This document shows positions 15,764 through 44,383 of a DNA stretch of 64,000 nt, piece by piece. Within the stretch, counting starts at the first letter, position 1; every line of letters begins with the position of its first letter. This stretch comes from an uncultured Eubacteriales bacterium. GTDB taxonomy: Bacteria; Bacillota; Clostridia; Oscillospirales; Oscillospiraceae. The stretch is taken from positions 12,639-76,638 of the forward strand of contig URGI01000001.1 in NCBI GenBank assembly GCA_900547315.1. The letters run 5' to 3'. The translations under genes were made by a program, and so were the position numbers. Below the pieces are notes generated by a model. That model had not been told where the DNA came from and did no database searches. It worked only from the letters and a program-made list of their open reading frames with translations.

Positions 15764-19402
<3,639 letters not shown>

Positions 19403-26288: not shown

Positions 26289-26463
26289 AAGTCGTCACTC
26301 CTTTCCCCACAACTCTTTAAGTATAAAATTTGCCGTCGGAAAACACAAGAGAAAAAATAAAAATCGCGAAATGACCAAAAATCTATCGAAAATTCTGTAC
26401 ATAGTGTCAATTGCAAATAGACAAAAACATGTTTATTATATATCTTGAAAAAAGTCATAGGGA

Positions 26464-26478
26464 AGTTAAACGATTATC
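26464..26478 (+). promoter_or_regulatory. Candidate LacI-family operator, copy 1 (AGTTAAACGATTATC), about 40 nt upstream of the regulator gene
   Basis: One of three copies of a near-palindromic 14-16-mer centred on CG. Exact string read from the sequence. Confidence 0.4.
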
Positions 26479-26514
26479 CGGGAGCAAACATCCCGAAAAA
26501 CGCAGTAAACGCAG

Positions 26515-27570
26515 ATGAATGGTAGAAAAGTAAGCTATGCGACAATAAAAGATGTTGCAGAGCTGGCCGAAACGTCTGTGGCGACCGTATCGTATATTCT
26601 CAGCGGAAAGTCCGAAAAGAGCTTCCGACAGGATACGGTGGACAGAGTTATGGCGGCTGTCGAGGAGCTGAATTACAGCAAGAACGCAATCGCCTCCGGA
26701 CTGCGCGGCAATAAGCGCGGCATGATCTACATCATTATCCCTCAGTTTTCAAACATATACTACACGCGAGTGTGCGAAGCGATAGAAAATGTTCTGTTTG
26801 AAAACGGACTTGTCCCCGTGATATGCGACACGAGAGAAGACCCGGAGCGTGAAAAGCGCCTGCTTGAGCTTGCGATAAGCCAGCGCTGCGACGGGATAGT
26901 GCTTGGGCCTACGATCAGAGGCTGGGAGAATACGGCGGCGGTCAGAAGCCTGAATATCCCGCTTGTCGTGGTCGGGCGCGAGCTTGGCTCGCCCAATGAC
27001 CAGAAGTCCTACTATTATGTAGGGGACGACAGCTATCAGGCCGGCTACCTTGCCGGAAGCGTCCTCGCAAAGGGCGGACATGAATCCATCGGAGTTATCG
27101 ACTGGGGAAGCCAGATCGGCTCGGCAATTGACCGAAGCAACGGCTTCACGGCGGCGATAAAAAAGCATTGCCCCGGTGTGAAGCTCATGCATGCGTCAAG
27201 CATGATCGTTGATGTAGATACCGGATACCAGCTTACGAAGAGCATATTTGGCGATAAAATGCCCAATGCACTCTTTTACAGCTACCATGTACTGGCGCAG
27301 GGAGGCATAACCTACCTTCACGAGCATGGCCTGCGCATCCCTGAGGATGTGACGATCTCGATGGTCGGCACACCGTCGTGGGCGAAGCTGCTGGAATCGC
27401 CGTGCACGATGGTAAATCAAAATGAAGATTGGGTTGGATCAACGGCGGCGAAGATAATGCTCCGTCTTATAGACGGAGATACGTCGAGCCTGCTCATGTC
27501 GGAATACCGGCATGTGTGCCGCTGCCAGCTCGTTGAACACAGCGGCTTCAGAAAAGCCGCGTCAAATTAG
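26515..27570 (+). CDS. LacI-family transcriptional regulator (HTH plus periplasmic-binding-protein-like sugar/ligand domain)
   Basis: N-terminal HTH ATIKDVAELAETSVATVSYIL and a C-terminal PBP-like domain. Confidence 0.85.
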   Translation: MNGRKVSYATIKDVAELAETSVATVSYILSGKSEKSFRQDTVDRVMAAVEELNYSKNAIASGLRGNKRGMIYIIIPQFSNIYYTRVCEAIENVLFENGLVPVICDTREDPEREKRLLELAISQRCDGIVLGPTIRGWENTAAVRSLNIPLVVVGRELGSPNDQKSYYYVGDDSYQAGYLAGSVLAKGGHESIGVIDWGSQIGSAIDRSNGFTAAIKKHCPGVKLMHASSMIVDVDTGYQLTKSIFGDKMPNALFYSYHVLAQGGITYLHEHGLRIPEDVTISMVGTPSWAKLLESPCTMVNQNEDWVGSTAAKIMLRLIDGDTSSLLMSEYRHVCRCQLVEHSGFRKAASN

Positions 27571-27608
27571 CAACGTTTACCGAAACAAGCCATTTTGGTA
27601 AACGTTGC
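27570..27608 (+). promoter_or_regulatory. Perfect 12-bp inverted repeat GCAACGTTTACC-N15-GGTAAACGTTGC just after the regulator stop (terminator-like hairpin or extended operator)
   Basis: Arms at 27570-27581 and 27597-27608. There is no U-tract afterwards, so its role is ambiguous. Confidence 0.35.
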
Positions 27609-27619
27609 AAAATAGGACA

Positions 27620-27635
27620 GGTTAAACGATTAACC
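27620..27635 (+). promoter_or_regulatory. Candidate LacI-family operator, copy 2 (GGTTAAACGATTAACC). A perfect palindrome TAGTTAACTA lies at 27642-27651.
   Basis: Near-palindrome with the same core as copies 1 and 3. Confidence 0.4.
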
Positions 27636-27755
27636 TAGATTTAGTTAACTACTTCACCGGAAAGAACCGGTTTGTGCAATCTGAAAAAAGACCGTAGGGG
27701 AGAAAAGCCCCGGAAAAAGACATGATTTCTGAAAATTGTGTCTTAACTTTAGCAA

Positions 27756-27771
27756 AGTTAAACGATTAACT
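27756..27771 (+). promoter_or_regulatory. Candidate LacI-family operator, copy 3 (AGTTAAACGATTAACT), about 100 nt upstream of the carbamate kinase start
   Basis: 7 of 8 palindromic pairs around the central CG. Identical core to copy 2. Confidence 0.4.
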
Positions 27772-27873: not shown

Positions 27874-28812
27874 ATGAAAAAAGTTGTTATTGCTCTCGGT
27901 GGAAACGCTCTTCAGGCAAGAGGCGAGGCCGCGACCAGCGAAAACCAGCTTAAGAACGTCATGGTGACCGCAGAGCACATCGCCAAGATAATCGGCGAGG
28001 GCTACAAGGTCATCGTCAGCCACGGCAACGGCCCCCAGGTCGGCAGAATCCTGCTCCAGAACGAGGCCGGCAAGAGCGTGACTCCTCCGATGCCGATGGA
28101 TGTCTGCGGCGCAATGACTCAGGGCATGATCGGATATCACATCCAGCAGGGTCTCTCTCAGGTTCTCCGCGAGAACGGCATTGACAAGCCCGTCTGCACC
28201 CTCGTGACTCAGGTCGAGGTCGACAGCGCTGACCCCGCATTCCAGAATCCCACCAAGCCTGTCGGCGCTTTCTACACCGAGGAAGAGGCCATGCAGATAC
28301 AGGCCGAGAAGGGCTACGCGATGAAGAAGGACGCGAACCGCGGCTACCGCAGAGTCGTTCCCTCCCCCAAGCCCCAGAAGATCATCGAGATCGACACCAT
28401 AAAGACCCTCGTCGACGGCGATACCGTTGTTGTCGCAGCAGGCGGCGGCGGAATCCCCGTGTGCAAGAAGGACGGCAAGTACGTCGGTATCGAGGCTGTT
28501 ATAGACAAGGACTTCGCCTCCGAGGTTCTCGCAGAGCAGCTTGACGCGGACATCCTGATGATCCTCACTGAGGTCGAGAACGTCTGCCTCAACTTCGGCA
28601 AGCCCGACGAGAAGGTTCTGCGTGAAGTCACTGCAGATGAGATGGACAAGTACGCGGCAGAAGGCCACTTCGCTCCCGGCAGCATGCTCCCGAAGGTTCA
28701 GGCCGTCAGCAAGTTCGTACACTCCAAGCCCGGCAGAGTCGCAGTCATCACCTCTCTGGAGAACGCCGTCAACGGCATCACCGGTGTAAAGGGAACCATC
28801 ATCAAAGGCTAA
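27874..28812 (+). CDS. arcC: Carbamate kinase
   Basis: Start at MKKVVIALGGNAL (ATG at 27874, GGAAGGACGG RBS). Amino-acid-kinase fold motifs throughout (e.g. VVVAAGGGGIPV). 312 aa. Confidence 0.85.
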   Translation: MKKVVIALGGNALQARGEAATSENQLKNVMVTAEHIAKIIGEGYKVIVSHGNGPQVGRILLQNEAGKSVTPPMPMDVCGAMTQGMIGYHIQQGLSQVLRENGIDKPVCTLVTQVEVDSADPAFQNPTKPVGAFYTEEEAMQIQAEKGYAMKKDANRGYRRVVPSPKPQKIIEIDTIKTLVDGDTVVVAAGGGGIPVCKKDGKYVGIEAVIDKDFASEVLAEQLDADILMILTEVENVCLNFGKPDEKVLREVTADEMDKYAAEGHFAPGSMLPKVQAVSKFVHSKPGRVAVITSLENAVNGITGVKGTIIKG

Positions 28813-28846
28813 GCGTCATTCATTATATTAATTAGGAGTTATAAAA

Positions 28847-30004
28847 ATGCGTGAAGTTATTCCTGTAAAATGCTCCATCGTCCGCGGCGGCACCAGCAAG
28901 GGCATCTTCATTATGGAAAATGAACTGCCCCGTGATCCCGAACTGCGCGACAAGTATATTCTTGAGATATTCGGCAGCCCCGATGTCCGTCAGATAGACG
29001 GTCTCGGCGGTGCGGACGTCCTCACCAGCAAGCTTGCGATAATCGGCCCGTCCAGCAGAGAAGATGCGGACGTCGATTATACCTTCGGTCAGGTCAGCTT
29101 CGTCGAGCCAAAGATCGACTACAAGTCCAACTGCGGCAACATCTCCGCCGGCGTTGCACCCTTTGCGATAAACAACGGCATTGTCAAGGCTGTTGAGCCC
29201 TACACCACCGTCCGCATCCATCAGGTCAACACCGACACCATCATCAACGCCAAGGTCGAGGTTCGTGACGGCAAGGCCGCTGTTGACGGCGACTTCCATA
29301 TCGACGGTGTTCCCACTCCCGGCTCCACGATCGAGCTTGACTTCTCCGACAGCGTCGGCGGCATCACCGGCAAGCTCCTTCCGACCGATAACGTTGTTGA
29401 CACCATCGTGACCGACGACGGCAAGAGCTACGAGGTCTCCGTGGTCGACGCGGGCATCCCAACCGTGTTCATTGAGGCCAAGTCCCTCGACATGAGCGGC
29501 ATCGAGACTCCCCAGCAGATCGAGGGCAACGCGGCGCTTATGACCAAGATCGAAGAGATCCGCGGCCGCTGCGCGGTAAAGATGGGCTTCACCGACGATT
29601 ACAAGAACGCCGTTAAGGATTGCCCCTACGCTCCGTTCTTCGCCATCGTCTCTCCGAGCCAGAGCTACCACACCTTCGACGGCAAGGACGTCAAGGGTGA
29701 GGACATCGACATCGTCAGCCGCCTCGTCTTCATGCAGAAGATGCATAAGACCCACCCCGTGACCGGCACCGTGTGCATGTCCACCGCGGCCCGCATCCCC
29801 GGCAGCATCGTCAACCGCAATCTCTCCGAGCGCGGCAAGGCCGAGCACCGTATATGGATCGGCCACCCGGCAGGCGTTATCCCGGCGGTCTCCGTCCTCG
29901 ACAACGTTGACGGCGAGTACAAGCTCCGCACCGCTGCCATTCTCCGCACCGCACGCGTCATCATGGACGGCACCGTATACGTGCGCCGCTCCAGAGTAGA
30001 GTAA
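28847..30004 (+). CDS. PrpF/AcnD-accessory family isomerase (2-methylaconitate or 3-methylitaconate isomerase-like)
   Basis: 385-aa protein with N-terminal IPVKCSIVRGGTSKGIFI, the hallmark of the PrpF/Mii family. Confidence 0.8.
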   Translation: MREVIPVKCSIVRGGTSKGIFIMENELPRDPELRDKYILEIFGSPDVRQIDGLGGADVLTSKLAIIGPSSREDADVDYTFGQVSFVEPKIDYKSNCGNISAGVAPFAINNGIVKAVEPYTTVRIHQVNTDTIINAKVEVRDGKAAVDGDFHIDGVPTPGSTIELDFSDSVGGITGKLLPTDNVVDTIVTDDGKSYEVSVVDAGIPTVFIEAKSLDMSGIETPQQIEGNAALMTKIEEIRGRCAVKMGFTDDYKNAVKDCPYAPFFAIVSPSQSYHTFDGKDVKGEDIDIVSRLVFMQKMHKTHPVTGTVCMSTAARIPGSIVNRNLSERGKAEHRIWIGHPAGVIPAVSVLDNVDGEYKLRTAAILRTARVIMDGTVYVRRSRVE

Positions 30005-30059
30005 GGGCGTTCAGCCAAAAGCTTTCAAATAAAAAAACAAAAAATTTCAGGAGGAAACC

Positions 30060-31448
30060 ATGAGCAAGTATTTAGCAGAGCAGATTTCTGAAGTAGTTGT
30101 CAACACCCATTTTGAGGATCTGCCCCAGTATGCAGTTGACAAAGCAAAGATGCTGACCCTCGACGTTCTGGCCTCTATGGTCGGTACCCGCAAGGTCATC
30201 TCCAGCGAAATCGCCCGCGATGTAGCGGCAGAGCTCGGCGGCCCGGAAGAGGCTTCCATCGTCGGCTACGGCAAGAAGGTTGCAGCACCCAACGCTGCAT
30301 TCGCAAATGCTATCCAGTGCTATGGTCTTGACTTCGTTGATGACCATAATGAATCCAACGCTCACCCCTCTCCCGTTACCTACCCCGTCAGCTTCGCACT
30401 CGCCGAGCAGCTCAAGCGCTCCGGTAAGGAATTCATCGAAGCCTGCGTTCTCGGTAACGAGATCGTCTGCCGTATGGGCAGCGCCTACCTCGGCGACATG
30501 TACACCCAGGGCTTCCATCCCACCAGCACCTGCGGCACCATGGGCGGTGTTGTCTCCGCTGCAAAGCTGATGAAGCTCGACGAGCAGAAGGTCTCCTACG
30601 CTCAGGGCATCGCCGGCTCCGCCGTTGCGGGTCTGATGGCATGGAACACCCAGGGCTCCTTCACCAAGCGTTACCAGGCCGGCCGTCCCTCCATGGACGT
30701 CATCGTTGCCGCACGCATGGCCGAGAAGGGCTTCAACGGACCTACCGACATCTTCGAGAGCCAGGACGGTCTGCTCCACGCATACTCCTACCAAGATCGC
30801 TACGACACCAACTGGATCACCAAGGATCTGGGCAAAGAGTGGATATTCGCCACCTCCAGCATCAAGGTTTACCCCTGCTGCCGTTACTCCGGCGGTCACC
30901 TCGACGCCTGCCTTGAGATCGTCCACAAGTATCATCCCGATCCCGCCAAGATCGCAAAGATCCACGTTCGCTCCTCCCTCCAGACCATGCACCTGCTGGC
31001 CGAGCCGCGCAAGTGGCATCCGGAAAACATCGTTGACCTGCAGTTCTCCATGCCTTACCAGGCAGCTGTCGCGTTCCTCAACGGCAAGTTCACTCCGGAC
31101 GAGCTGAATGTCGAGTACATCAAGAATCCGCTCATCCAGAAGATGATCGCCAACACCACCGTCGTCTGCGACGATGAGTTCGAGCGCCGTTATCCTGAGC
31201 ACTACTCCAGCGCTGTTACCATCACCATGGAAGACGGCACCGAGTACACCGCAGTTGTCGACGATCCTAAGGGCGACTGGAGAAATCCCGTTACCTACGA
31301 AGATGTCGAGAACAAGTTCCGTTACCTCGCCAATACCGTTTACGCTGATCCCGAGCGCACCGAGAAGATCATTGCTTTCGTCAAGGATCTTGAGAAGCAG
31401 CCCGACATGAGCGTTCTCATGGAGCTTGTAAACGACGAGGCCAAATAA
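30060..31448 (+). CDS. MmgE/PrpD family protein (2-methylcitrate dehydratase / cis-aconitate decarboxylase superfamily)
   Basis: 462-aa protein with the MmgE/PrpD architecture (N-terminal helical domain, conserved C-terminal region). Confidence 0.85.
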   Translation: MSKYLAEQISEVVVNTHFEDLPQYAVDKAKMLTLDVLASMVGTRKVISSEIARDVAAELGGPEEASIVGYGKKVAAPNAAFANAIQCYGLDFVDDHNESNAHPSPVTYPVSFALAEQLKRSGKEFIEACVLGNEIVCRMGSAYLGDMYTQGFHPTSTCGTMGGVVSAAKLMKLDEQKVSYAQGIAGSAVAGLMAWNTQGSFTKRYQAGRPSMDVIVAARMAEKGFNGPTDIFESQDGLLHAYSYQDRYDTNWITKDLGKEWIFATSSIKVYPCCRYSGGHLDACLEIVHKYHPDPAKIAKIHVRSSLQTMHLLAEPRKWHPENIVDLQFSMPYQAAVAFLNGKFTPDELNVEYIKNPLIQKMIANTTVVCDDEFERRYPEHYSSAVTITMEDGTEYTAVVDDPKGDWRNPVTYEDVENKFRYLANTVYADPERTEKIIAFVKDLEKQPDMSVLMELVNDEAK

Positions 31449-31479
31449 TTAAGCTTCGCAAGTGAGAGGAGATAAACAT

Positions 31480-32055
31480 ATGGGCGAAAGAAATGCCGAC
31501 TCTCGCGGGAAGAAGATAGTTTTCGTATCCAACTGCCTGCTCAACGCCAACAACAAGGTTCAGGAGTTTGCACGCTACCCCGGAATGTTTTTCGAGATAC
31601 TCACCACGCTCAACAGGTATGGCATCGGCGTCGAGCAGATGCCATGCCCGGAGACGCTGTACGCCGGAAACCAGCGCTGGTGGCACTCCCGCAATCTTTA
31701 CGATAATGCGGGCTTCAGAAGATTCTGCCGCGAGCTTGCCGAGCGGACGGTCGACTACATCGAGAACTACGGCATAGTAGGCTATCAGGTGGTCGGTATT
31801 CTGGTCTGCGACGGGTCCCCGACCTGCGGCTACTCCATCTCCAGCTATTACGAAAACGGCGGCGGTCATCCTGCCGAGCCGGTACGCAGCTTTAAAGAGC
31901 GCCCCGGCATATATACGGAGGAATTGCTCAAGGCGGTCGAGGCGCGGGGCGTGAAGCTCCCGCCGATATACGGCCTGCCGGTGGACGACAGAGATCGCAC
32001 CAACGAGCAGATAATCGCCGATTTTGACAGTTTCATTAATTCCAATCTCACCTAA
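31480..32055 (+). CDS. DUF523 family protein (TudS-like: three conserved Cys, [4Fe-4S]-dependent 2-thiouracil desulfidase family)
   Basis: IVFVSNCLL..., MPCPET and GSPTCGY match the three Cys-containing motifs of DUF523/TudS. Start at the ATG at 31480 with a GAGAGGAG RBS. Confidence 0.6.
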   Translation: MGERNADSRGKKIVFVSNCLLNANNKVQEFARYPGMFFEILTTLNRYGIGVEQMPCPETLYAGNQRWWHSRNLYDNAGFRRFCRELAERTVDYIENYGIVGYQVVGILVCDGSPTCGYSISSYYENGGGHPAEPVRSFKERPGIYTEELLKAVEARGVKLPPIYGLPVDDRDRTNEQIIADFDSFINSNLT

Positions 32056-32170
32056 TTTATATCGCGCTCGCTCCGGCTCCCCCCTTGCCGGAGTGAGCGC
32101 ACCTCCCCCTGCTTCTGGCTCATAGTGAGCATAGATTTATTTAGAAAAACAGAGAAGGGTTGTATTTACT

Positions 32171-33433
32171 ATGGGAATGACATTTGCACAGAAAGCTCTG
32201 GCAAGAGCCGCAGGCAAAGATTATGTTGATATAGGCGAAATCGTCATGGCGAACGTCGACGTGGCCATGATGGACGATATACTCGGCCCCAGAATCGAGA
32301 TCGCAGCCGGTTTGAAAGAACTGGGCGTTGACGTCTGGGACAAGTCCAAGGTCGTTGTCATAAGCGACCACTACACTCCTCCCTGCGAGATAAAGCAGGC
32401 TGAGGCCGTCCGCTTCACGCGCGACTGGTCCGAGGAGCACGAGGTGTCCTACTACGAGTACGCAGGACCGTGTCATCAGGTTCTGGCCGAGCGCTGCTAT
32501 GACCAGCCCGGCACCCTCGTCGTCGGCACCGACTCCCACACCTGCATGGCAGGCGCTTTCGGCGCGTTCGGCACCGGCATCGGCTCTACCGAGATGCTCG
32601 GCGTCGTCGCCACCGGCCAGATCTGGCTCAAGGTTCCCGAAAGCTTCCGCATTGAATGGAAAAACAAGCTCCCCGCGGGCGTATTTGCCAAGGACATGGT
32701 TCTCTATGACTGCGGCAAGATCGGCCACTCCGGAGCCACATATAAAGCACTTGAGTACTGCGGCGATATGATAAGCGCCCTGTCAATGGACGAGCGCATG
32801 GCCATCTCCAACATGGCCGTTGAGATGGGCGCGAAGGCCGGCTACATCCCGGCCGACGAAAAGACCCTCGAATACATCAAGGCGCACGGCGAGCTCAAGA
32901 ACTACGCGATGCTCTATCCCGACGCGGACGCCGTCTACGAGCGCAACTACGTGAACGACGCGGCGGCGCTTGTACCGCAGGTCGCCTGCCCGCACCACGT
33001 CGACAATGTCCACCCCGTCACCGAGGTGGAGGGCACCAAGCTCACCCAGGTCTACATCGGCTCCTGCACCGGCGGCAGAATTTCCGACCTGCGCACCGCA
33101 GCAAAGGTGCTCAAGGACAGGAAAGCGGCTCCCGGAATGCGCTTCCTCGTCTCCCCGGCCTCCAGAGAGGTCTACAAGATGGCGCTTAACGAAGGCATAC
33201 TCGATATCCTCACCGACGCCGGCGCGGTCATCGTCGCCCCGTCCTGCGGACTCTGCCTCGGCGCGCACACCGGCATACTCGCAGCCGGCGAGAGCTGCAT
33301 CTCCACCAGCAACCGCAACTTTATCGGACGTATGGGCAGCAAGAATGCGAACGTCTACCTCGGCTCTGCGGCAACCGTCGCAGCTTCCGCGATAGAGGGA
33401 CGTATAGCCGATCCAAGAAAGTATTTTGAATAA
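32171..33433 (+). CDS. Aconitase-family hydro-lyase large subunit, short LeuC-type (3-isopropylmalate / citramalate / dimethylmaleate dehydratase-like)
   Basis: 420-aa short-form LeuC with Fe-S ligand motifs GSCTGGR and APSCGLCLG. It is sited in a catabolic operon, not with leuAB. Confidence 0.8.
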   Translation: MGMTFAQKALARAAGKDYVDIGEIVMANVDVAMMDDILGPRIEIAAGLKELGVDVWDKSKVVVISDHYTPPCEIKQAEAVRFTRDWSEEHEVSYYEYAGPCHQVLAERCYDQPGTLVVGTDSHTCMAGAFGAFGTGIGSTEMLGVVATGQIWLKVPESFRIEWKNKLPAGVFAKDMVLYDCGKIGHSGATYKALEYCGDMISALSMDERMAISNMAVEMGAKAGYIPADEKTLEYIKAHGELKNYAMLYPDADAVYERNYVNDAAALVPQVACPHHVDNVHPVTEVEGTKLTQVYIGSCTGGRISDLRTAAKVLKDRKAAPGMRFLVSPASREVYKMALNEGILDILTDAGAVIVAPSCGLCLGAHTGILAAGESCISTSNRNFIGRMGSKNANVYLGSAATVAASAIEGRIADPRKYFE

Positions 33434-33451
33434 TCGGGAGGGAGAATAAAA

Positions 33452-33946
33452 ATGGATTCTGTAATCACCGGAAAGGTATGGAAATTCGGAGATGACATCA
33501 ATACCGACATAATATCTCCCGCCGAATACATGGACGCCAGCTACGGGGTTATCGGTAAGCACGCGATGGAGCGCGCGTTCCCCGGCTTCGCGGATGCTAT
33601 TGCACGGGGTGATATAATCGTTGCAGGTAAAAACTTCGGCTCCGGCTCCAGCCGCGAGACAGCGCAGATCGCTCTCATTTACGCGGGCGTCGGCGCGGTC
33701 ATTGCGAAGGACTTCGCCCGTATCTTCTTCAGAAACTGCATTAACGTCGGCCTGCCCGTTGTCAACTTTGCGGACACCGACAAGCTCAATCAGGGCGATG
33801 AGATACGCGTCAACTTCCTCTCCGGCGTGATCGAGGATCTCACCACCGGCGAGACCTATCACGGCAGCCGTCTGCCTGAAAACGTGCTTGCAATCGTGCA
33901 GGACGGCGGACTGAAGGAGCACCTGAAGAAAAGCCTCAAAAAATAA
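33452..33946 (+). CDS. Aconitase-family hydro-lyase small subunit, short LeuD-type
   Basis: 164-aa protein with N-terminal KFGDDINTDIISP and a GSSRE region typical of the LeuD swivel domain. Confidence 0.8.
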   Translation: MDSVITGKVWKFGDDINTDIISPAEYMDASYGVIGKHAMERAFPGFADAIARGDIIVAGKNFGSGSSRETAQIALIYAGVGAVIAKDFARIFFRNCINVGLPVVNFADTDKLNQGDEIRVNFLSGVIEDLTTGETYHGSRLPENVLAIVQDGGLKEHLKKSLKK

Positions 33947-33982
33947 GTAAAAACTTATATATATTTTCACGGAGGTAAAACA

Positions 33983-35173: not shown

Positions 35174-35194
35174 ACAGCAGGGGAGGCTGAGACA

Positions 35195-36580: not shown

Positions 36581-36603
36581 ATCAACAAAAAAGGAGAACT
36601 ACT

Positions 36604-37590: not shown

Positions 37591-37657
37591 GAATTTAATA
37601 AGAAGTAACATAAACAAAAGCAAGATCAGACGATTCCCACTCTGCGAATGAAATAAT

Positions 37658-37715
37658 CGGGGCAGGAGGAGAACCTGCCCCGTGTTGGAAAGCGATCCGC
37701 GGTCGCTTTTCTCCG
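37658..37715 (+). terminator. Tandem hairpins ending operon 1 (CGGGGCAGG/CCTGCCCCG, then AGCGATC/GGTCGCT plus TTTTCTCC)
   Basis: 9-bp GC stem at 37658-37682. A second 7-bp stem at 37691-37707 is followed by a U-rich tract. Confidence 0.5.
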
Positions 37716-37788
37716 CAGGCCGTATGCTCAGTCGCGAGGGTATGCGAGGCGGAAAACATAAAGCAACATTTAGAGGAGGAAAAAATTT

Positions 37789-37938
37789 ATGTTCGGATTA
37801 CCGTTCCCAACCTATCTTGGCTGGCTTCTCGGCCCCGGCGTCATGATCTTCACGTTCTTGACAAGCTTTATCCTTTATAAGAACTATCTTAAAAAGGAAG
37901 CTGCCGAGGAAGCAGAAAAGAACAGCAAAGATAAGTAA
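37789..37938 (+). CDS. Small single-TM peptide (49 aa) immediately upstream of the SSS symporter (possible symporter accessory subunit)
   Basis: GAGGAGGA RBS 8 nt before the ATG at 37789. Translation is MFGLPFPTYLGWLLGPGVMIFTFLTSFILYKNYLKKEAAEEAEKNSKDK. It is absent from the ORF track because it is under 60 aa. Confidence 0.4.
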   Translation: MFGLPFPTYLGWLLGPGVMIFTFLTSFILYKNYLKKEAAEEAEKNSKDK

Positions 37939-37992
37939 ATAGCATATACCAGCAGAAACCTATCATGGCATAAAGTGACAGGAGGAAACCAA

Positions 37993-39483
37993 ATGGATAG
38001 TAAAATCAAAATAATGGGTTATGCGGTCCATGGCTTGTACTTCGTTGGTATGCTGGCTATCGGTTATTTTTGCAACAAGAAGTATGCAAACAATGTTGAT
38101 GGCTTCTTTGCCGGCGGCAAGAACCTTGGCCCATGGGTCTTCGCACTTACCTACGGTTCAACTTATCTCAGCTCTTCGACGTTTGTCGGCAACACCGCCA
38201 CGGCTTACTCCGGCGGTCTTGCCTACCTTTTCATGCCCCTTGCGCAGATGCTCTTACTCCCCCTCGGACTTATCTTCTTCTCCCACATCCTGCGTAAGAT
38301 GAGTCAGTCATTGGATGTTGTCACTATCCCTGCATATCTTGAAAAACGTTTCAAGAGTCCCGCTGCCGGAATGATAACCTCCCTCATTATCGTCATTTTC
38401 TTCATTCCCTATCTCGTTGGCATAGTCAAGGCATCGGCGCTTTCGCTGGGTGCTCTTCTTGGCGTTGAGTACAAAATCGGTGTTCTCGTTATCGCGTTCA
38501 TCAGTTTTGTTTATCTCATGTTCGGCGGCTATATGGCTCGCTGCTACACTGACGTGGTTCAGGGTGTGATGATGGTCGTCGGTATGATGGCGGTTGTTAT
38601 TGCCGGCTTCTTCATTGTCGGCGGACCGAGCGCCATTACCGAAGGCGTGAAGGCAGCCGATCCCGCGCTCCTTGAGACCCCCGGTCCTAAGGGCTGGAGC
38701 GCACTGTTCCTCTATTCCACTGTTTTTGCAATAGCCCCGTGGGGACTTCCCACTCTCGTTCAGACCAACTTCACCATAGGCAACAGAAAGCATGTTTACA
38801 CCGCCGCTATCGTTCTGTCCATTTGGATATCCTGTGTCCTCTTCGGCTCCATGATAATCGGCAACATGGGCCGCGCCTTCTACGGCAACGCTCTTGTTGA
38901 TAATCCTGACTCCCTGTTCCCGACGCTGGTTATTGACTGGTTCCCGAACCTCTTCGGTGCTATAATTATCGTTGCGGTCATCTGCGCGGCAATGTCTACA
39001 ATTGACGGCACGCTGATGAACTCCGGCGCCGCTGTCGGCCTTGATATATACAAGCGTTTTATCAAGAAGGACGCGAGCGACAAGAAGGTCATTACGATCT
39101 CCAACATAGCAATGGGCGTTATCACGCTTGTCGTTATAATCTGGGCGTTTGATCCTCCCGCAATGGTGCTCACCCTCACAAGCTACGCGTTCTCTCTGGT
39201 CGCTGCCGGACTTATCGTTCCCACCTATGCGGGTCTTTACTGCAAGAAGCTCACCAGCGCAGGCTGCGTGGTTGGTATTCTTGCCGGTCTTGGCTTCTGC
39301 CTGCTGTGGTACATTACCGGTACGCCGCTTGGGATCCCTCCGTTCGTTGTCGGTATGGTCGCCTCCGCGATCGCTCTCTTCGGCGTCAGCAAGTTCACCA
39401 AGCCCCTGCCTCAGGAGTTTATTGACGATCTGTTCGCAAAGCTCAAGAACAACGCATACGTTACGGAAACTGTGGAAAAGTAA
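37993..39483 (+). CDS. Sodium:solute symporter (SSS) family transporter
   Basis: About 496-aa protein with 13-14 predicted TM helices and the SSS-family pattern. ATG at 37993 after an AGGAGGA RBS. Confidence 0.8.
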   Translation: MDSKIKIMGYAVHGLYFVGMLAIGYFCNKKYANNVDGFFAGGKNLGPWVFALTYGSTYLSSSTFVGNTATAYSGGLAYLFMPLAQMLLLPLGLIFFSHILRKMSQSLDVVTIPAYLEKRFKSPAAGMITSLIIVIFFIPYLVGIVKASALSLGALLGVEYKIGVLVIAFISFVYLMFGGYMARCYTDVVQGVMMVVGMMAVVIAGFFIVGGPSAITEGVKAADPALLETPGPKGWSALFLYSTVFAIAPWGLPTLVQTNFTIGNRKHVYTAAIVLSIWISCVLFGSMIIGNMGRAFYGNALVDNPDSLFPTLVIDWFPNLFGAIIIVAVICAAMSTIDGTLMNSGAAVGLDIYKRFIKKDASDKKVITISNIAMGVITLVVIIWAFDPPAMVLTLTSYAFSLVAAGLIVPTYAGLYCKKLTSAGCVVGILAGLGFCLLWYITGTPLGIPPFVVGMVASAIALFGVSKFTKPLPQEFIDDLFAKLKNNAYVTETVEK

Positions 39484-39607
39484 CACGCACGTTTCACTCC
39501 AAGATTCCCGTGTATCGAGGTTGGCCACCTCGATATGCGGGATGATAAAAAACGAGCATAAACTAAAAATTTAACGTAAGTTTTACACATCCAAAAAGGG
39601 AGATCTG

Positions 39608-41257
39608 ATGAAAAAATACAATCTTGACTTAAGCGGCTACAATGTGCCGCATGATATGCTGCCTACCAAACCGGAAGAGCGCAACTGGAACATTTACAGC
39701 TTCTTCGCTCTCTGGATCGGCATGGATATCGGTATCCCCACTTACATGCTCGCTTCTGGACTTATTGAGGGCGGCATGAACCTCAAGTGGGCCATGATTA
39801 CCATTTTGCTTGCGAATATAATCATTGCATTCCCCATCATGCTCAACGGCCATGCCGGTGCGAAGTATGGTATTCCTTCCACCGTTTATTGGCGCTCCGC
39901 GTTCGGCTTCAACGGCGCAAGCGTCGCTGCGGTTCTCCGCGGCATCGTGGCTGCCGGCTGGTGCGGCATCCAGTTCTGGATCGGCGGCAACGCGCTGAAC
40001 GTTGCGCTGTCCATCCTCATCCCCGCGTGGGGCAACTGGGCCTTGGGCAAATGGGTTTGCTTTGTAGTGTTCCTTCTGCTGAACCTCTATATACTTATCA
40101 ACGGACTTGGTGCGATAAAGAAGATGGAACATCTCTGCGCACCCATGCTCATCATCTGGCTGATCGTCATGCTCATCTGGGCGCGTACCACCGCGGGCAG
40201 CTGGGGACCGATGGTCAACGCCAAGATGACCTTCGCAACCACCGCGGAGTTCGTCGCTTTCTTCGTCGTCAGCCTCAACTCCAACATCAGCTACTGGTGC
40301 TCCATGCCCCTTACGGTCACTGACTTCACCAAGGCGGCAAAGGATCAGCGCAGTCAGGAAGTTGGCCAGCTGCTCGGCATACCCACCGGTATGTTCCTGC
40401 TCGCTCTCGTCGGCGCTCTGGTCAGCTCCTGCACCATCGTTATCTTCGGACATGTCATCACCGACCCCGTTGCTCTCACCAGCATGATCGGCCATCCTGC
40501 GCTGATCGTCGGCATGATGCTCTTCCTCATCATCGCAACTCTTACCACGAACGTCGCCGCAAACGCCCTTACCCCGGCGGTTGCAATCGTTCACCTCACC
40601 AACGGCAAGCTGAACTTCAAGTGGGCTGCTGTCGTTCTCTGCGCCATCGGCGTCGCAATTCGTCCTTGGGTGCTCATCAACGACATGGGTCTTTACATGA
40701 ACTTCTTCCTCAACGGCGGCGGCGCTCTGCTCGGCCCCGTTGTCGGGGTGACGATCTGCCACTACTTCTTCGTCTGCCGCACCGAGCTTGACGTTAGAAG
40801 CCTTTATGTTCCAGAAGGCGAGTCGATGTTCCTGAACATCAAGAAGTACAACAAGCCCACCTACATAATCATCTGGGCGATGTCGGCTATTATGCTTCTT
40901 ATCGCGCAGCTGGCTCCCGCATCCTGGCAGACCGCAACCTGCACTTTGGGCTGCTCCATGCGCTTCTCCATGAACGCCATGGCCATAATCTGCATTGCGC
41001 TGGGCTATCTGGTCTTCCGCAAGAGAGAAGGCGGCATCAACTCCCTGAGCTACCTCACCCTTGCGATAAGCTTTGTCATCATCTTCCTCGGCCTGTGGGT
41101 TCCCGTAGCGCACTGGCTGTATGACGCGTCCTTCATCGTCGGCACTCTGCTTGGCCTGGGCATCTACGTCCTGCTCATGCGCGTGTGCGACAAGGACTTC
41201 ATGGTCAAGAAAGCCGCCGAGCACAAGGCAGCCAAGGCTGAAGAGGCAAACGCCTGA
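39608..41257 (+). CDS. NCS1 family permease (nucleobase-cation symporter-1: cytosine/uracil/allantoin/hydantoin-type)
   Basis: 549-aa 12-TM protein with the NCS1 N-terminal pattern (ERNWNIYSFFALWIGMDIGIPTYMLASGLI). GGGAGAT RBS. Confidence 0.8.
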   Translation: MKKYNLDLSGYNVPHDMLPTKPEERNWNIYSFFALWIGMDIGIPTYMLASGLIEGGMNLKWAMITILLANIIIAFPIMLNGHAGAKYGIPSTVYWRSAFGFNGASVAAVLRGIVAAGWCGIQFWIGGNALNVALSILIPAWGNWALGKWVCFVVFLLLNLYILINGLGAIKKMEHLCAPMLIIWLIVMLIWARTTAGSWGPMVNAKMTFATTAEFVAFFVVSLNSNISYWCSMPLTVTDFTKAAKDQRSQEVGQLLGIPTGMFLLALVGALVSSCTIVIFGHVITDPVALTSMIGHPALIVGMMLFLIIATLTTNVAANALTPAVAIVHLTNGKLNFKWAAVVLCAIGVAIRPWVLINDMGLYMNFFLNGGGALLGPVVGVTICHYFFVCRTELDVRSLYVPEGESMFLNIKKYNKPTYIIIWAMSAIMLLIAQLAPASWQTATCTLGCSMRFSMNAMAIICIALGYLVFRKREGGINSLSYLTLAISFVIIFLGLWVPVAHWLYDASFIVGTLLGLGIYVLLMRVCDKDFMVKKAAEHKAAKAEEANA

Positions 41258-41280
41258 TCGACCTCAAACAGGAGCAAAAA

Positions 41281-42105
41281 ATGAGAAACGTAACTATCAG
41301 CGTCATCCAGCTTGAAAACAAGCTCTTTGATAAGAATGCGAACCTTCTCAAGGCCGACGGACTCATCCGTCAGGCCGCGGCAAAGGGCGCAAAAATGATA
41401 TGCCTGCCCGAACTTTTTGTCACGGGCTACAACCTCAACGCCTTCGGCGACAGGATATATGAGCTTGGCGAAGGGCTGACCGGCCCCACCATCACTCATA
41501 TGCGCGCTCTGGCAAAGGAGCTTGGCGTGTACATAATAGCGCCCATAGCCATGCAGATGCGCACGACCCGCCCGCTGGAGAACAACGCCGTCGTTATCGA
41601 CGACGAGGGCGAGGTCATCGGCACCTACAGCAAAAACCATCTCTTCGGCGACGAGCCGAAATACTTCACCGCCAACGGTGAATACCCGGTGTTTGACACC
41701 AAATACGGCAAGATCGGCATAATGATCTGCTGCGATAACAACTTCCCCGAACCCGCGCGCATCCTTGCGCTCGGCGGCGCGGAGCTGATATTCATGCCCG
41801 CGGCATGGCGCGTACAGGAAGCGGATCTGTGGAAGCTCCTCATCTCCTCGCACGCCTGCGAGAACAATGTGTTCATCGCCGCAGCCAATGTCTTCAGCCG
41901 TATGGACGATCTGTTCCTTTTCGGACACAGCAAGGTCGTCGATCCCAGAGGCAGAGTTCTGCGCGAATCCGAGACGGAGGGAGACGATGTGCTCGTTGAG
42001 ACCATCGATCTCGATTCCGTGTACGAGCATCGCGCCTGCATGCCCAGCCTCAAGGATCGCCACCCCGAAACCTACGATGCGTTCATCGAACCGGTGAACG
42101 TGTAA
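41281..42105 (+). CDS. Carbon-nitrogen hydrolase family amidase (nitrilase superfamily branch that includes N-carbamoyl-amino-acid amidohydrolases, beta-ureidopropionase and omega-amidase)
   Basis: Catalytic triad context: E in LPELF, K in YSKNHLF, C in MICCDNNFPE. Confidence 0.8.
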   Translation: MRNVTISVIQLENKLFDKNANLLKADGLIRQAAAKGAKMICLPELFVTGYNLNAFGDRIYELGEGLTGPTITHMRALAKELGVYIIAPIAMQMRTTRPLENNAVVIDDEGEVIGTYSKNHLFGDEPKYFTANGEYPVFDTKYGKIGIMICCDNNFPEPARILALGGAELIFMPAAWRVQEADLWKLLISSHACENNVFIAAANVFSRMDDLFLFGHSKVVDPRGRVLRESETEGDDVLVETIDLDSVYEHRACMPSLKDRHPETYDAFIEPVNV

Positions 42106-42192
42106 GCACAGCGAAAGCGGGCGGTGCGCAAATCATTTGCCGCGCCGCCTGCAAATTAAGCCTTTGGCTTTATTATAATGGAGGAAAATAAA

Positions 42193-43383
42193 ATGTCTGG
42201 ATTACTTGACGGCGTAGTCGTACTCGACCTTACGCGTGTTCTTGCAGGCCCCTACTGCGGAATGATAATGGCCGATATGGGCGCGACCGTAATTAAGCTC
42301 GAAAACCCGGCCGGCGGCGACGATACGCGCAAAATGGGCCCGTTTGTTAACGAAAACAGCGTTTATTATGCAAACTTCAACAGAAGCAAGCTCGGCTGCA
42401 CGCTCAATCTCAAGGCTCCCGAAGGAAAAGAGATTTTCAAAGAGCTTGTAAAGAAGGCCGACATTGTTATTGAGAACTACCGTCCCGGCACCATGGAAAA
42501 GCTCGGTCTCGGCTACGATGTTCTCAAGGAAATAAATCCCGCGATAATCTACGGCGCAGTCTCCGGCTTCGGCCACACCGGCCCGCTGAGCAGACGCGCA
42601 GGCTATGACATAGTCGGTCAGGCAATGGGCGGCCTTATGAGCACCACCGGCTGGCCCGACGGCGAGCCGACCCGTTCCGGCACCCCCATGGGCGACGTCC
42701 TCGGCGGCCTGAACCTCACCATCGGCGTCCTTGCCGCGCTGAATAACCGCCAGAAGACCGGCCTTGGCGAAAAGGTCGACGTCGCGCTGGTCGACTCCGT
42801 TGCGTCCGCGATGGAGAACATAACCATGATTTATCAGGCCACCGGCCGTATCCCCCAGCGCATAGGCAACCGCTATGAGTCTACATATCCGTACGACTCC
42901 TTCCCCGCGAAGGACGGCAACGTCATTATTGCTGCCGGCAATAACAAGCTCTTTGCTATCCTGTGCCAGGTCATGGGTCAGCCGGAGCTGGCTCAGGATC
43001 CGCGCTTCGTCGAGATAAAGGATCGCGTTGCAAACCATGCGCCCCTGCGCAGAATCGTCTCCGCGTGGAGCGAGAACTACACCATCGCCGAGATCGACCA
43101 GATGCTCAACTCCGCCGGCTGCCCCGCCAGCGCCGTCAACACCATCGACAGACTCGTTGTCGATCCGCAGATCTCCGGCGCGCGCAACATGTTCCCCGAA
43201 ATAGACCAGCCGGGCATCGGCAAGCTCCATATCACCGCCATTGCCCCCAAGCTCACCCGCACCGACTCCTATCCCAGAAAGGCCGCTCCGCTGCTCGGCG
43301 AGGACAACGCCAATGTCTACGGAGAGTATCTCGGCTTCGACGCGGGCAAGCTCGAACAGCTCAAGAACGACGGCGTCATCTGA
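42193..43383 (+). CDS. Family III CoA-transferase (CaiB/BaiF family; e.g. formyl-CoA, itaconate or citramalate CoA-transferase-like)
   Basis: N-terminal LDGVVVLDLTRVLAGPYCGMIMADMGATVIKLE is the family III signature. ATG at 42193 after a GGAGGA RBS. Confidence 0.85.
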   Translation: MSGLLDGVVVLDLTRVLAGPYCGMIMADMGATVIKLENPAGGDDTRKMGPFVNENSVYYANFNRSKLGCTLNLKAPEGKEIFKELVKKADIVIENYRPGTMEKLGLGYDVLKEINPAIIYGAVSGFGHTGPLSRRAGYDIVGQAMGGLMSTTGWPDGEPTRSGTPMGDVLGGLNLTIGVLAALNNRQKTGLGEKVDVALVDSVASAMENITMIYQATGRIPQRIGNRYESTYPYDSFPAKDGNVIIAAGNNKLFAILCQVMGQPELAQDPRFVEIKDRVANHAPLRRIVSAWSENYTIAEIDQMLNSAGCPASAVNTIDRLVVDPQISGARNMFPEIDQPGIGKLHITAIAPKLTRTDSYPRKAAPLLGEDNANVYGEYLGFDAGKLEQLKNDGVI

Positions 43384-43402
43384 TTTTCGGGAGGTAAGAA
43401 TA

Positions 43403-44314
43403 ATGTCTGAATATCCGAAAAGCGTACAGCTCGTCGAGGTCGGCCCAAGAGACGGCTTCCAGAGCGTGAAGGAATTCATCCCCACCGAGACAAAGAAAAA
43501 GGTCATCGACATGCTCGTCGCGGCCGGCTGCAAGAAGATACAGGCCACGTCCTTCGTAAACCCCAAGGCCATCCCCCAGATGGCGGATGCCGCGGAGATA
43601 GCCGAGTACGTGCTCAAGACCTATCCCGACGTTTCGTTCTATGCGCTCACCCCGAACGCCAGAGGTGTCCAGAACGCATGGGACGCCGGCTTCCGTGAGG
43701 TCAGCTATGTCATCTCCGTCTCCGCGGGGCACAACATGGCGAACGTCCGCCGCACCCCGGACGAGTCCTTTGCCGATCTCCGCGCGATCCGCGAGCGCTA
43801 TCCCGACATGAAGATCGTCCTTGACGCAGCAACCACCTTCGGCTGCCCGTTCGACGGCGTCGTCACGACGGAGCAGGTCGTCGCGTATCTTGAAAAGGCG
43901 CGCGAAGCCGGCATCACCGCCGTTGACCTCTGTGATACCATCGGCATCGCAAACCCGCTTCAGGTTGAGCGCCTTGCGGGCGTTGTGCTCGAAAAGTTCC
44001 CGGAGATAAGCTTCGGCATACATATTCACGACACCCGTAACATGGGCATCGTCAATACGCTCACCGCCATCCGCTCCGGCATCACCAGAGTGTCCACCAC
44101 CTGCGGCGGCATGGGCGGCTGCCCGTTCGCACCCGGCGCGTCCGGCAACACCTCCAGCGAGGATCTCGTGTTCATGCTCGACCAGATGGGCATCGACACC
44201 GGCGTCAGCTTCGAGAAGCTGCTGGAGACGGCGCGCTTCCTCAAGGAGAACGTCCCCGCAAATTACAGCGGCCACCAGATGAATATTGCCCCGAAGCAGT
44301 GCGTCATGGGCTGA
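43403..44314 (+). CDS. HMG-CoA lyase-like (DRE-TIM HMGL family) acyl-CoA lyase; candidate citramalyl-CoA / HMG-CoA-type lyase
   Basis: VEVGPRDGFQ, HIHDTRNMG and GGCPFA motifs. ATG at 43403 after a GGGAGG RBS. Confidence 0.8.
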   Translation: MSEYPKSVQLVEVGPRDGFQSVKEFIPTETKKKVIDMLVAAGCKKIQATSFVNPKAIPQMADAAEIAEYVLKTYPDVSFYALTPNARGVQNAWDAGFREVSYVISVSAGHNMANVRRTPDESFADLRAIRERYPDMKIVLDAATTFGCPFDGVVTTEQVVAYLEKAREAGITAVDLCDTIGIANPLQVERLAGVVLEKFPEISFGIHIHDTRNMGIVNTLTAIRSGITRVSTTCGGMGGCPFAPGASGNTSSEDLVFMLDQMGIDTGVSFEKLLETARFLKENVPANYSGHQMNIAPKQCVMG

Positions 44315-44335
44315 TCGCCCCGCCGCACTTTACGG

Positions 44336-44383
44336 AAAACAAATCCCGCGTACCGTTCGGTACGCGGGATTTGTCGGTTTATG
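44336..44383 (+). terminator. Intrinsic terminator ending operon 2 of the island
   Basis: 12-bp stem ATCCCGCGTACC/GGTACGCGGGAT with loop GTTC, then TTGTCGGTTTAT. Confidence 0.6.

Follow-up and report, generated by a model that had tools for sequence, protein, structure and literature searches.

Do the genes for opening a cyclic ureide and those for converting a branched C5-dicarboxylate, which lie together in one island of a human-gut Clostridia genome, serve a single catabolic pathway, and if so, for which substrate? The island is located in a 64-kb stretch of contig URGI01000001.1 from an uncultured Eubacteriales bacterium, and this whole stretch is referred to as the window. Genes were taken from its open reading frame (ORF) listing and assigned to families by Pfam and NCBIfam scans. 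An initial annotation had described an island of 15 catabolic genes behind a LacI-family regulator gene. The 15 genes and lacI were all present on the + strand at the positions first given, and the gene assignments were borne out by the listing and the scans (Table 1). The ureide side comprises PreA, a cyclic amidohydrolase, a carbamoyltransferase of the ornithine/aspartate carbamoyltransferase (OTC/ATC) family and carbamate kinase; the carboxylate side comprises a (methyl)itaconate isomerase-like (Mii-like) protein, a PrpD-like protein, LeuC- and LeuD-like subunits (LeuCD), a CoA-transferase and an HMG-CoA-lyase-family (HMGL-like) lyase. With a probability of about 0.5, we propose that the genes of the island form a single catabolic route, whose substrate would be an anionic, carboxyl-substituted ureide of the uracil type, possibly imported partly in a 2-thio or amide form.

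The evidence for a functional unit comes from the distribution of the genes. Neighbourhoods were gathered for homologs of the transferase and of the PrpD-like protein, and the window proteins were mapped by tblastn onto 87 loci (L-numbers designate the loci compared); grouping at 95% identity gave 51 PrpD-like lineages. PreA was present in 19 of the 24 lineages whose PrpD-like protein is at least 61% identical to that of the window. Among the five lineages without PreA, four are represented by contigs no longer than 5.5 kb; all that can be seen of the cluster on the 12.5-kb contig of the remaining lineage, L137, is a PrpF-type gene and a second PrpD paralog. A carbamoyl-removing step occurred in 17 of the 19 PreA lineages, as an OTC-like transferase in 11 and as an M20 carbamoylase in 6, the remaining two being truncated; carbamate kinase was usually also in view in the 11 lineages with the transferase. 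At least six distinct gene orders were found, and in all of them the ureide genes are interspersed with the carboxylate genes. The first is that of the window and L001. Others are NCS1-CNh-CK-Mii-PrpD-TudS-LeuCD-PreA-PreT-DHP-OTC-SSS-CoAT in L105 and L170, ICL-Mii-PrpD-OTC-LeuCD-DHP-NCS1-CNh-CK-PreA-PreT-TudS in L006 and LeuCD-DHP-OTC-CK-Mii-PrpD...SSS...PreA in L003 (CNh, CN-hydrolase; CK, carbamate kinase; DHP, cyclic amidohydrolase; SSS, sodium:solute symporter; CoAT, CoA-transferase), and L130 and L136 add two further interleaved orders. The lineages concerned include Oscillospiraceae, an Enterocloster-type scaffold, Thermoanaerobacteraceae and others. L001, an Oscillospiraceae metagenome-assembled genome (MAG), carries all 15 genes in the same order, with proteins 82–91% identical and different flanks. 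The combination is thus more than a chance juxtaposition. Two outcomes that the initial annotation had named as contradicting it, a lack of co-conservation and a mapping of the genes to separate canonical pathways, were thus not found.

The cluster is frequent in metagenomes of the human gut. Contigs identical to the window come from this source, the protein clusters formed at 90% identity contain 140–173 member sequences, and one PrpD-like member occurs on 196 contigs. The 90% cluster of a PrpD-like homolog that is 74% identical to that of the window includes proteins named for the cultured species Enterocloster aldenensis; a complete cluster of the window type was read on the gut-metagenome scaffold L170, which encodes a protein identical to one of those named for E. 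aldenensis.

Three types of cluster were distinguished. Type I is that of the window, and the SSS gene is conserved in it. Type II, found in Dendrosporobacter quercicolus and several MAGs, comprises genes for a uridine phosphorylase (TIGR01718, 281.9 bits; cut-off 280.3), a Crp-family regulator, a PrpD-like protein, an SsuA/NMT1-type ABC transporter, a TudS-like protein, PreA, an amidohydrolase, an M20 carbamoylase that is an amidase of the hydantoinase/carbamoylase family and sometimes a CN-hydrolase. No Mii, LeuCD or lyase gene was found in type II clusters. Type III originates from sediment metagenomes, has PrpD-like proteins of 56–60% identity and comprises genes for a GntR regulator and PrpD-like, LeuCD-like and Mii-like proteins together with a SucCD-like ligase, an HMGL-like lyase and a CoA-transferase; genes similar to OTC and PreA/PreT accompany some copies and are missing from others. 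As the PrpD-like gene occurs in types I, II and III, it is common to the ureide and the carboxylate modules.

This distribution bears on an alternative in which the island would serve two parallel pathways in the manner of a Stickland fermentation. Plain uracil, thymine or thiouracil would be the electron acceptor and ATP source, processed by PreA, the amidohydrolase, the transferase and carbamate kinase with excretion of β-alanine or 3-aminoisobutyrate, while a separately imported C5/C6 acid (itaconate, citraconate or aconitate) would be the electron donor and would be converted to pyruvate by the PrpD-like and Mii-like proteins, LeuCD, the CoA-transferase and the lyase. We consider this unlikely. 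A carboxylate module that includes the PrpD-like gene does stand alone in type III clusters, the island has two different transporters, PreA exceeds the equivalog cut-off for dihydropyrimidine dehydrogenase, and the PrpD-like protein retains five of eight active-site residues of cis-aconitate decarboxylase (CAD), all as expected from this alternative. However, type II clusters keep the PrpD-like gene beside the TudS-like, PreA, amidohydrolase and M20 genes without Mii, LeuCD or the lyase, so that the PrpD-like step seems to be part of the ureide branch. In addition, the genes are interleaved instead of being arranged in blocks, and the invariant basic residues of the transferase suggest a substrate with more negative charge than β-alanine has.

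Several relatives depart from these types. LarA-type racemase orthologs that are 66% identical to each other adjoin ureide genes in two otherwise different clusters (L089, 5314–6600; L172, 12860–14140), and in L089 an esterase gene and a YjjI-type glycyl-radical pair lie directly upstream. A type III variant (L168, 79–9974) starts with genes for an aldehyde:ferredoxin oxidoreductase, an amidohydrolase and a fused molybdo-flavo hydroxylase. Genes for a class III aminotransferase and a tandem isochorismatase and a second PreA-like gene belong to the same initial segment, and the variant may act on another heterocycle that is channelled into the same lower pathway. In five loci (L150, L161, L162, L165 and L169) a gene of the monomethylamine methyltransferase family (MtmB-like) ends the type III operon, e.g. 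at 19486–20949 in L162, with an aldehyde:ferredoxin oxidoreductase gene upstream on the opposite strand. L004 (7361–20981) encodes a 65% identical transferase with PreA, a PreT-like protein and carbamate kinase, followed by acyl-CoA dehydrogenase, ETF, enoyl-CoA hydratase, an ADP-forming acyl-CoA synthetase and TctABC, and may represent an ATP-yielding route from uracil via β-alanine to propionate. PrpD-like homologs of the L142 type are located among unrelated genes.

Among the individual enzymes, the carbamoyltransferase differs from OTC in the ornithine motifs. The motifs for carbamoyl phosphate, PSTRTRVSFE (STRTR) and EHPCQ (HPxQ), are retained and invariant in 43 homologs. Alignment to the OTC of P. 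furiosus showed that the TDVWASMG segment (the DxxxSMG loop) is changed to AKSWGST, with Asp231 replaced by Lys244, that HCLP is changed to HPLP, and that SWAYSDRVKSPGVPQ takes the place of GDGNNV. Three basic residues, R175, K177 and K244, do not vary across the 43 homologs, down to 55% identity. Since the ornithine motifs are lost and the basic residues are invariant, the amine substrate is probably acidic, and from these motifs the enzyme probably has a new specificity, converting an N-carbamoyl acidic amine and phosphate to the amine and carbamoyl phosphate. It is therefore not an ordinary OTC. The OTC model TIGR00658 is barely passed (281.6 bits; cut-off 280.85), which accounts for the public label 'ornithine carbamoyltransferase', and NF001986 gives 298.9 bits, below its cut-off of 306; models for YgeW give 115–124 bits against cut-offs of 453–500. 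A canonical arcABC system was rejected because the OTC motifs are lost and no ArcA is encoded in the cluster. The family is not restricted to clusters of the PreA type: a 55% identical homolog stands alone among unrelated genes in L173, and L171 (6637–11034; 62% identity) has a different ureide cluster, with two tandem OTC-family paralogs, carbamate kinase, an M20 hydrolase, a peptide-type ABC transporter and GntR regulators. A scan of a genome collection with back-translated transferase patterns returned only ordinary OTCs of at most 45% identity (L007–L086), the patterns being too generic.

Another alternative is a fermentation of the orotate type, with a 6-carboxy pyrimidine as substrate. 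Orotate is a real gut substrate and is fermented by Clostridium oroticum. Here orotate would be reduced to dihydroorotate and opened to N-carbamoyl-aspartate, which would yield aspartate and carbamoyl phosphate for ATP formation; the substrate of the PrpD-like protein would be either the aspartate-type product or the corresponding N-carbamoyl compound, and an epimerisation similar to that by IDS epimerase is one example of its possible action. The HPLP motif of the transferase resembles that of ATCase, the amidohydrolase scores well on dihydroorotase models and its relatives match PF12890 (DHOase), and the PrpD-like protein has its best PDB match in IDS epimerase, an enzyme whose substrate is an N-substituted aspartate. 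Aspartate, however, could be used without the Mii-like, LeuCD-like, CoA-transferase and HMGL-type enzymes, all of which are co-conserved, and the uridine phosphorylase and TudS-like genes of type II point to uridine-type nucleosides. PreA, which has an FMN domain and two 4Fe-4S motifs, is also nearer to the dihydropyrimidine dehydrogenase model (448 bits) than to dihydroorotate dehydrogenase models (188 bits). We regard the orotate route as quite unlikely.

No PreT homolog was detected by tblastn in the 64-kb window, and PreT is present in most type I relatives (L006, L105, L109, L119, L130 and L170). The cyclic amidohydrolase has its best PDB matches in L-hydantoinase 1GKR (290 bits) and allantoinase (243 bits) and scores below every NCBIfam equivalog cut-off, including that for dihydropyrimidinase (TIGR02033, 261.3 bits against 393). 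These matches would suit a ureide of the (thio)hydantoin type, in which a five-membered ring bears an unsaturated carboxyalkyl side chain. Its ring would be opened to an N-carbamoyl α-amino dicarboxylate, e.g. of 3-methylaspartate, and deamination would give a C5 unsaturated acid. NCS1 permeases include hydantoin transporters, the M20 enzyme of type II belongs to the hydantoinase/carbamoylase family, and there are sub-threshold NCBIfam matches to ErtD and ErtE. We nevertheless judge a hydantoin substrate very unlikely: PreA passes the dihydropyrimidine dehydrogenase cut-off, type II clusters have a uridine phosphorylase, Mii-type isomerase acts on methylene-succinates and not on mesaconate, and no natural hydantoin of such structure could be named. 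Degradation of ergothioneine or hydantoin-5-propionate was rejected separately, as the ErtD score is 295 bits against a cut-off of 650 and glutamate needs no C5 module.

Two further proteins may remove decorations from the imported compound. The TudS-related protein had no Pfam match at E<0.001, while homologs carry PF27735/PF04463, and phmmer against PDB sequences gave no match. A homolog is encoded by Sporomusa sp. KB1. Five cysteines (Cys19, 56, 83, 110 and 116) are invariant. Its AlphaFold model has a predicted local distance difference test (pLDDT) score of 82.6, and the top five PDB fold matches are all TudS, with weak values (E 0.03–0.05; probability 0.84–0.90; template-modelling (TM) score 0.38–0.52); by this fold comparison it is a putative [4Fe-4S] desulfidase. 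The CN-hydrolase matched no equivalog and is closest in the PDB to PH0642, an archaeal Nit/β-ureidopropionase, N-carbamoylputrescine amidase and Nit2. In the relatives its gene is always adjoined by that of the NCS1 permease, and it occurs together with the M20 carbamoylase in L088 and L106.

On the carboxylate side, the Mii-like protein aligned with the 3-methylitaconate isomerase of Eubacterium barkeri (3G7K) at 420 bits and 56% identity (208/373), and K62 and C96 of 3G7K, which we take to be its catalytic residues, occur at the same positions. Similarity to PrpF is only 250 bits, TIGR02334 gives 290 against a cut-off of 440, and the score is also under the cut-off for OMA tautomerase; the protein thus appears to be a (methyl)itaconate δ-isomerase-like enzyme. 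The PrpD-like protein reaches only 21–47 bits with PrpD equivalogs (cut-offs 458–950), which argues against a methylcitrate dehydratase, and among solved structures it is closest to IDS epimerase (110 bits) and CAD/IRG1 (approximately 92–97 bits). The active site of human CAD comprises D93, T97, H103, H159, K207, K272, H277 and Y318. In the CAD alignment (92 bits), five of these eight are kept, as D91, H102, H153, K203 and K269, whereas T97 and H277 are changed to H96 and C274 and Y318 is not kept. The families PrpF and PrpD first assigned were thus retained and refined to a Mii-like isomerase and a PrpD clade outside methylcitrate metabolism. A methylcitrate cycle was rejected, the PrpD and PrpF scores being far under the cut-offs.

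The LeuC-like subunit scores below the equivalog cut-offs for LeuC, HacA and aconitase. In the specificity loop of the LeuD-like subunit, relatives of type I have YMDA and those of type III have YLSL, neither of which matches the patterns that we assume for homoaconitase (YLRT) and isopropylmalate (YLVx); this argues weakly against a tricarboxylate substrate. A biosynthetic leuCD pair was rejected, given the scores under equivalog cut-offs and the location inside a catabolic operon. The nearest NCBIfam models of the CoA-transferase are oxalate, glutarate and mesaconate CoA-transferases, all under cut-off, and the HMGL-like lyase, with 230 bits to HMG-CoA lyase 1YDO, is proposed to perform a cleavage of the citramalyl-CoA type to pyruvate and acetyl-CoA. 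In relatives the pathway ends either with a CoA-transferase or SucCD-like ligase plus an HMGL-type lyase or, in L006, with an ICL/PrpB-type lyase in place of the CoA-transferase and HMGL-type lyase. By known chemistry, a citramalate-type 2-alkylmalate can be cleaved by either terminal route.

Put together, these assignments suggest the following pathway, in which the steps from uptake to carbamate kinase are derived from family assignments and those from the PrpD-like protein onward from context. The SSS symporter would take up an anionic form of the substrate and the NCS1 permease a neutral form; where present, a thio group would be stripped by the TudS-related protein and an amide by the CN-hydrolase. 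PreA would then reduce the ring double bond, probably with electrons from ferredoxin, as no PreT is encoded in the window and a gene for pyruvate:ferredoxin oxidoreductase (PFOR; 15764–19468, – strand) lies 8 kb upstream of the island. Ring opening by the cyclic amidohydrolase would give an N-carbamoyl acid, which the OTC-derived transferase would phosphorolyse to carbamoyl phosphate and an acidic amine, and carbamate kinase would form ATP, CO2 and NH3 from carbamoyl phosphate and ADP. The amine would be converted by the PrpD-like protein to a methylene-dicarboxylate of the itaconate type, most simply by β-elimination of ammonia. The Mii-like isomerase would shift the double bond to give a citraconate type, the LeuCD-like hydratase would add water to give a citramalate type, and the CoA-transferase and HMGL-like lyase would yield pyruvate and acetyl-CoA. 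Such a fermentation would be redox-neutral, because oxidation of pyruvate by PFOR returns the two electrons spent on ring reduction, and could provide up to about 3 ATP per substrate.

As to the substrate itself, our leading candidate is 5-carboxymethyl(-2-thio)uracil or its amide, which would come from mcm5/ncm5(s2)U, nucleosides at the wobble position of eukaryotic tRNA; this is a guess and rather doubtful. 5-Carboxymethyluracil would be converted via 2-(aminomethyl)succinate to itaconate and, speculatively, is the sole natural compound we could name that gives itaconate by this logic. The mcm5, ncm5 and mcm5s2U nucleosides would fit because the TudS-like protein could account for the thio group, the CN-hydrolase beside NCS1 for the amide and the type II uridine phosphorylase for the nucleoside; in some relatives the esterase and the LarA-type racemase might remove an ester and a hydroxy acid as further decorations. 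On this proposal, which we put forward with little confidence, gut and sediment anaerobes would ferment 5-carboxymethyl-, 5-carbamoylmethyl- and 5-methoxycarbonylmethyl-(2-thio)uracil by a dedicated pathway with free itaconate as intermediate and approximately 3 ATP per base. Its two candidate new activities would be a 2-(ureidomethyl)succinate:phosphate carbamoyltransferase and a PrpD-family 2-(aminomethyl)succinate ammonia-lyase. Other uracils, namely those of cmnm5U and cmo5U, thymine and 5-hydroxymethyluracil, were rejected, as the resulting amines are monocarboxylates or do not lead to methylene-succinate.

Several points weigh against a single pathway from a carboxyl-substituted uracil. 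No ammonia-lyase of the proposed kind is known in the MmgE/PrpD family; the PrpD-like protein deviates from CAD at three of eight active-site positions and is only about 25% similar to any characterised member. Type III clusters without ureide genes in view indicate that the PrpD-like substrate can arise without a pyrimidine, and a five-membered ring is possible because the amidohydrolase resembles L-hydantoinase and allantoinase more closely than dihydropyrimidinase. 5-Carboxymethyluracil is scarce as a nutrient for an ATP-yielding pathway of 15 genes, the relation to TudS is weak at the fold level, and both substrate and chemistry are deduced from gene content.

Regulation and operon structure were examined across the window. 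A 14-bp palindrome, GTTAAACGATTAAC, occurs in three copies in the 64 kb, one of them with a single mismatch, and all three are located in the promoter regions flanking lacI. No operator of this type was found before the second operon in the window. The placement fits control of the first operon and of lacI itself by LacI, which would repress via the GTTAAACGATTAAC operators; a LacI homolog is also encoded upstream of the cluster in type I relatives. LacI control of the island, as initially annotated, is thus backed by the sites around lacI and lacks a corresponding site for the second operon. Stable hairpins with U-rich tails are located 3' of the transferase gene and 3' of the lyase gene. As a hairpin and U-rich run end each gene block, the proposed layout of two terminator-delimited operons is plausible, and the structures at 37658–37711 are plausibly a terminator or attenuator separating the two blocks. 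A further hairpin of 15 bp (27571–27607) follows immediately after the lacI stop and has no U-run. An Rfam scan of the whole window returned no riboswitch or leader.

Table 1. Features of the catabolic island and its borders in the 64-kb window.
Feature	Position	Strand	Score or basis
M20D-type amidohydrolase	25116–26288	–	Pfam Peptidase_M20/M20_dimer; TIGR01891 303 bits, cut-off 154
Operator-like palindrome, one mismatch, upstream of lacI	26465–26478		Window-wide site search
LacI-family regulator	26515–27570	+	Pfam LacI and Peripla_BP
Operator-like palindrome GTTAAACGATTAAC, exact copy 1, upstream of carbamate kinase gene	27621–27634		
Operator-like palindrome GTTAAACGATTAAC, exact copy 2, about 100 nt before carbamate kinase start	27757–27770		
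Carbamate kinase	27874–28812	+	TIGR00746 arcC equivalog 438.9 bits, cut-off 358
PrpF-family, (methyl)itaconate δ-isomerase-like (Mii-like) protein	28847–30004	+	
MmgE/PrpD-superfamily protein, distinct clade (PrpD-like)	30060–31448	+	
TudS-related putative [4Fe-4S] desulfidase, CD3072 family	31480–32055	+	NF045597 133.6 bits, cut-off 130
LeuC-like hydro-lyase large subunit	32171–33433	+	NF001614 545.8 bits, cut-off 385
LeuD/DmdB-family small subunit	33452–33946	+	TIGR02087 180.3 bits, cut-off 109
PreA-type dihydropyrimidine dehydrogenase subunit	33983–35173	+	NF006183 448.4 bits, cut-off 335
Cyclic amidohydrolase, L-hydantoinase/allantoinase/dihydroorotase-like	35195–36580	+	
OTC/ATC-family carbamoyltransferase	36604–37590	+	
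Two tandem hairpins, the second followed by UUUUCUCC	37658–37711	+	–39.2 kcal/mol, z –3.9
49-aa peptide with a single transmembrane segment	37789–37938	+	
SSS sodium:solute symporter, PutP/PanF-like	37993–39483	+	SSF 192 bits; TIGR00813 201 bits, cut-off 184
NCS1 nucleobase/hydantoin/allantoin-type permease	39608–41257	+	PF02133 226 bits
Nitrilase-superfamily amidase (CN-hydrolase)	41281–42105	+	PF00795 186.6 bits
Family III CoA-transferase, dicarboxylate type	42178–43383	+	PF02515 425 bits
HMG-CoA-lyase-family (HMGL-like) lyase	43403–44314	+	NF004283 278.7 bits, cut-off 246
16-bp hairpin, intrinsic-terminator-like island end	44339–44374	+	–32.2 kcal/mol, z –5.2

The start of the SSS gene is the ATG at 37993, which has an AGGAGG ribosome-binding site, and not position 37975. 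The 49-aa peptide encoded upstream is likely a small subunit of the symporter; in L001, L003 and L172, too, a small ORF (49, 39 and 55 aa, respectively) lies before the SSS gene. At the upstream border, the divergent M20D amidohydrolase gene may be a sixteenth member of the island, so that the extent first given holds for the 15 genes and may have to be widened by this one; in three other lineages (L098; L099/L100; L110/L111/L114/L118), homologs of 54–62% identity have the same position and are likewise divergent from lacI. The downstream gene at 44525–45328, described from the beginning as a truncated ABC-exporter remnant, indeed encodes a nucleotide-binding domain alone (267 aa) with a shortened signature region, and is overlapped by a long antisense ORF. 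The flanking genes are of the housekeeping type (CTP synthase, PFOR, FakA, spore-cortex enzymes and a tRNA synthetase). GC skew of the + strand is negative over the island (28000–44000) and positive in the flanks, and the GC content dips to 0.49 at 26–28 kb; together with the different flanks of the close relative L001, this suggests an insertion or inversion.

If the proposed pathway is correct, it would add to the known cases in which ATP is conserved from a ureide and would be the first with a pyrimidine-type ring. It would provide a function for a large, mis-annotated clade of 'ornithine carbamoyltransferases' as well as for a distinct MmgE/PrpD clade, members of which are publicly labelled '2-methylcitrate dehydratase', and it would mean that enzymes of lower nicotinate fermentation are re-used for another N-heterocycle. 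Through an itaconate-type intermediate, the breakdown of nucleobases by microbes would be linked to an immunometabolite of the host. Fluoropyrimidine drugs are also inactivated by PreA-type enzymes of gut bacteria, and the occurrence of PreA in a different pathway context matters for predicting this inactivation. The model is directly testable, as the cultured E. aldenensis has a protein of the same 90% PrpD cluster.

How does the island compare with known systems? Neither the gene combination nor a phosphorolytic cleavage of a β-ureido acid was found described in the literature searched, in line with the initial view of an undescribed combination. The reductive uric-acid (2,8-dioxopurine) pathway of E. 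coli and C. difficile involves XdhD, YgfK, SsnA, HyuA, YgeW, YgeY, YgeX and YqeA (PMC12507026). Like the proposed pathway, it dearomatises an N-heterocycle by anaerobic reduction, opens the ring with a cyclic amidohydrolase, removes the ureido group by a carbamoyltransferase or M20 hydrolase, forms ATP by carbamate kinase and ends in pyruvate (PMC12507026). In contrast, the transferase of the island is not YgeW, XdhD, YgfK, SsnA and YgeX are absent from the island by Pfam scans, and the reductase is PreA, so that the distinction from the ygeW cluster drawn at the outset was upheld. Whereas the uric-acid pathway uses a pyridoxal-phosphate-dependent lyase, the carbon skeleton would here be handled by the PrpD-like, Mii-like and LeuCD-like proteins, the CoA-transferase and the lyase.

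With reductive pyrimidine catabolism (PreTA/PydA, dihydropyrimidinase and β-ureidopropionase), the island has in common a PreA equivalog, a cyclic amidohydrolase and a start from a uracil-type ring. It differs in that the transferase and carbamate kinase are the enzymes assigned to decarbamoylation, which would be phosphorolytic and ATP-yielding; moreover, the amidohydrolase is under the dihydropyrimidinase cut-off, PreT is absent from the window, and the product would enter a dicarboxylate module. The lower part of nicotinate fermentation in Eubacterium barkeri proceeds via Mii, the dimethylmaleate hydratase DmdAB and the dimethylmalate lyase Dml. To this pathway the link is closer than initially stated, given the 56% identical Mii, the LeuD/DmdB-family hydratase and, in L006, an ICL/PrpB-family lyase in the position of Dml. 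The stated difference remains in that families of nicotinate dehydrogenase, enamidase and the B12-dependent 2-methyleneglutarate mutase are missing from the island by Pfam scans; in addition, the methylene-dicarboxylate would originate from a ureide-derived amine via the PrpD-family enzyme, and the end is formed by a CoA-transferase and HMGL-type lyase.

Fermentations that yield carbamoyl phosphate are known from arginine deiminase, agmatine deiminase/putrescine transcarbamylase, oxalurate and allantoate/ureidoglycine transcarbamylase systems (PMC3282769, PMC4016543, PMC6022934). These likewise combine a catabolic transcarbamylase with carbamate kinase for substrate-level phosphorylation, but the substrate motifs of the island transferase match no described transcarbamylase, and the ureide would be made by ring reduction and opening. 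Finally, a known CoA-ester route also leads from a C5 branched dicarboxylate to pyruvate and acetyl-CoA; unlike that route, the island has no itaconyl-CoA hydratase or CitE-type lyase, and isomerisation and hydration of the free acid are proposed to precede CoA activation. Each of the nearest systems thus shares one module with the island and none the whole set, and we conclude that the island probably encodes a new pathway whose enzymes come from families already known, two of them probably with a new specificity.

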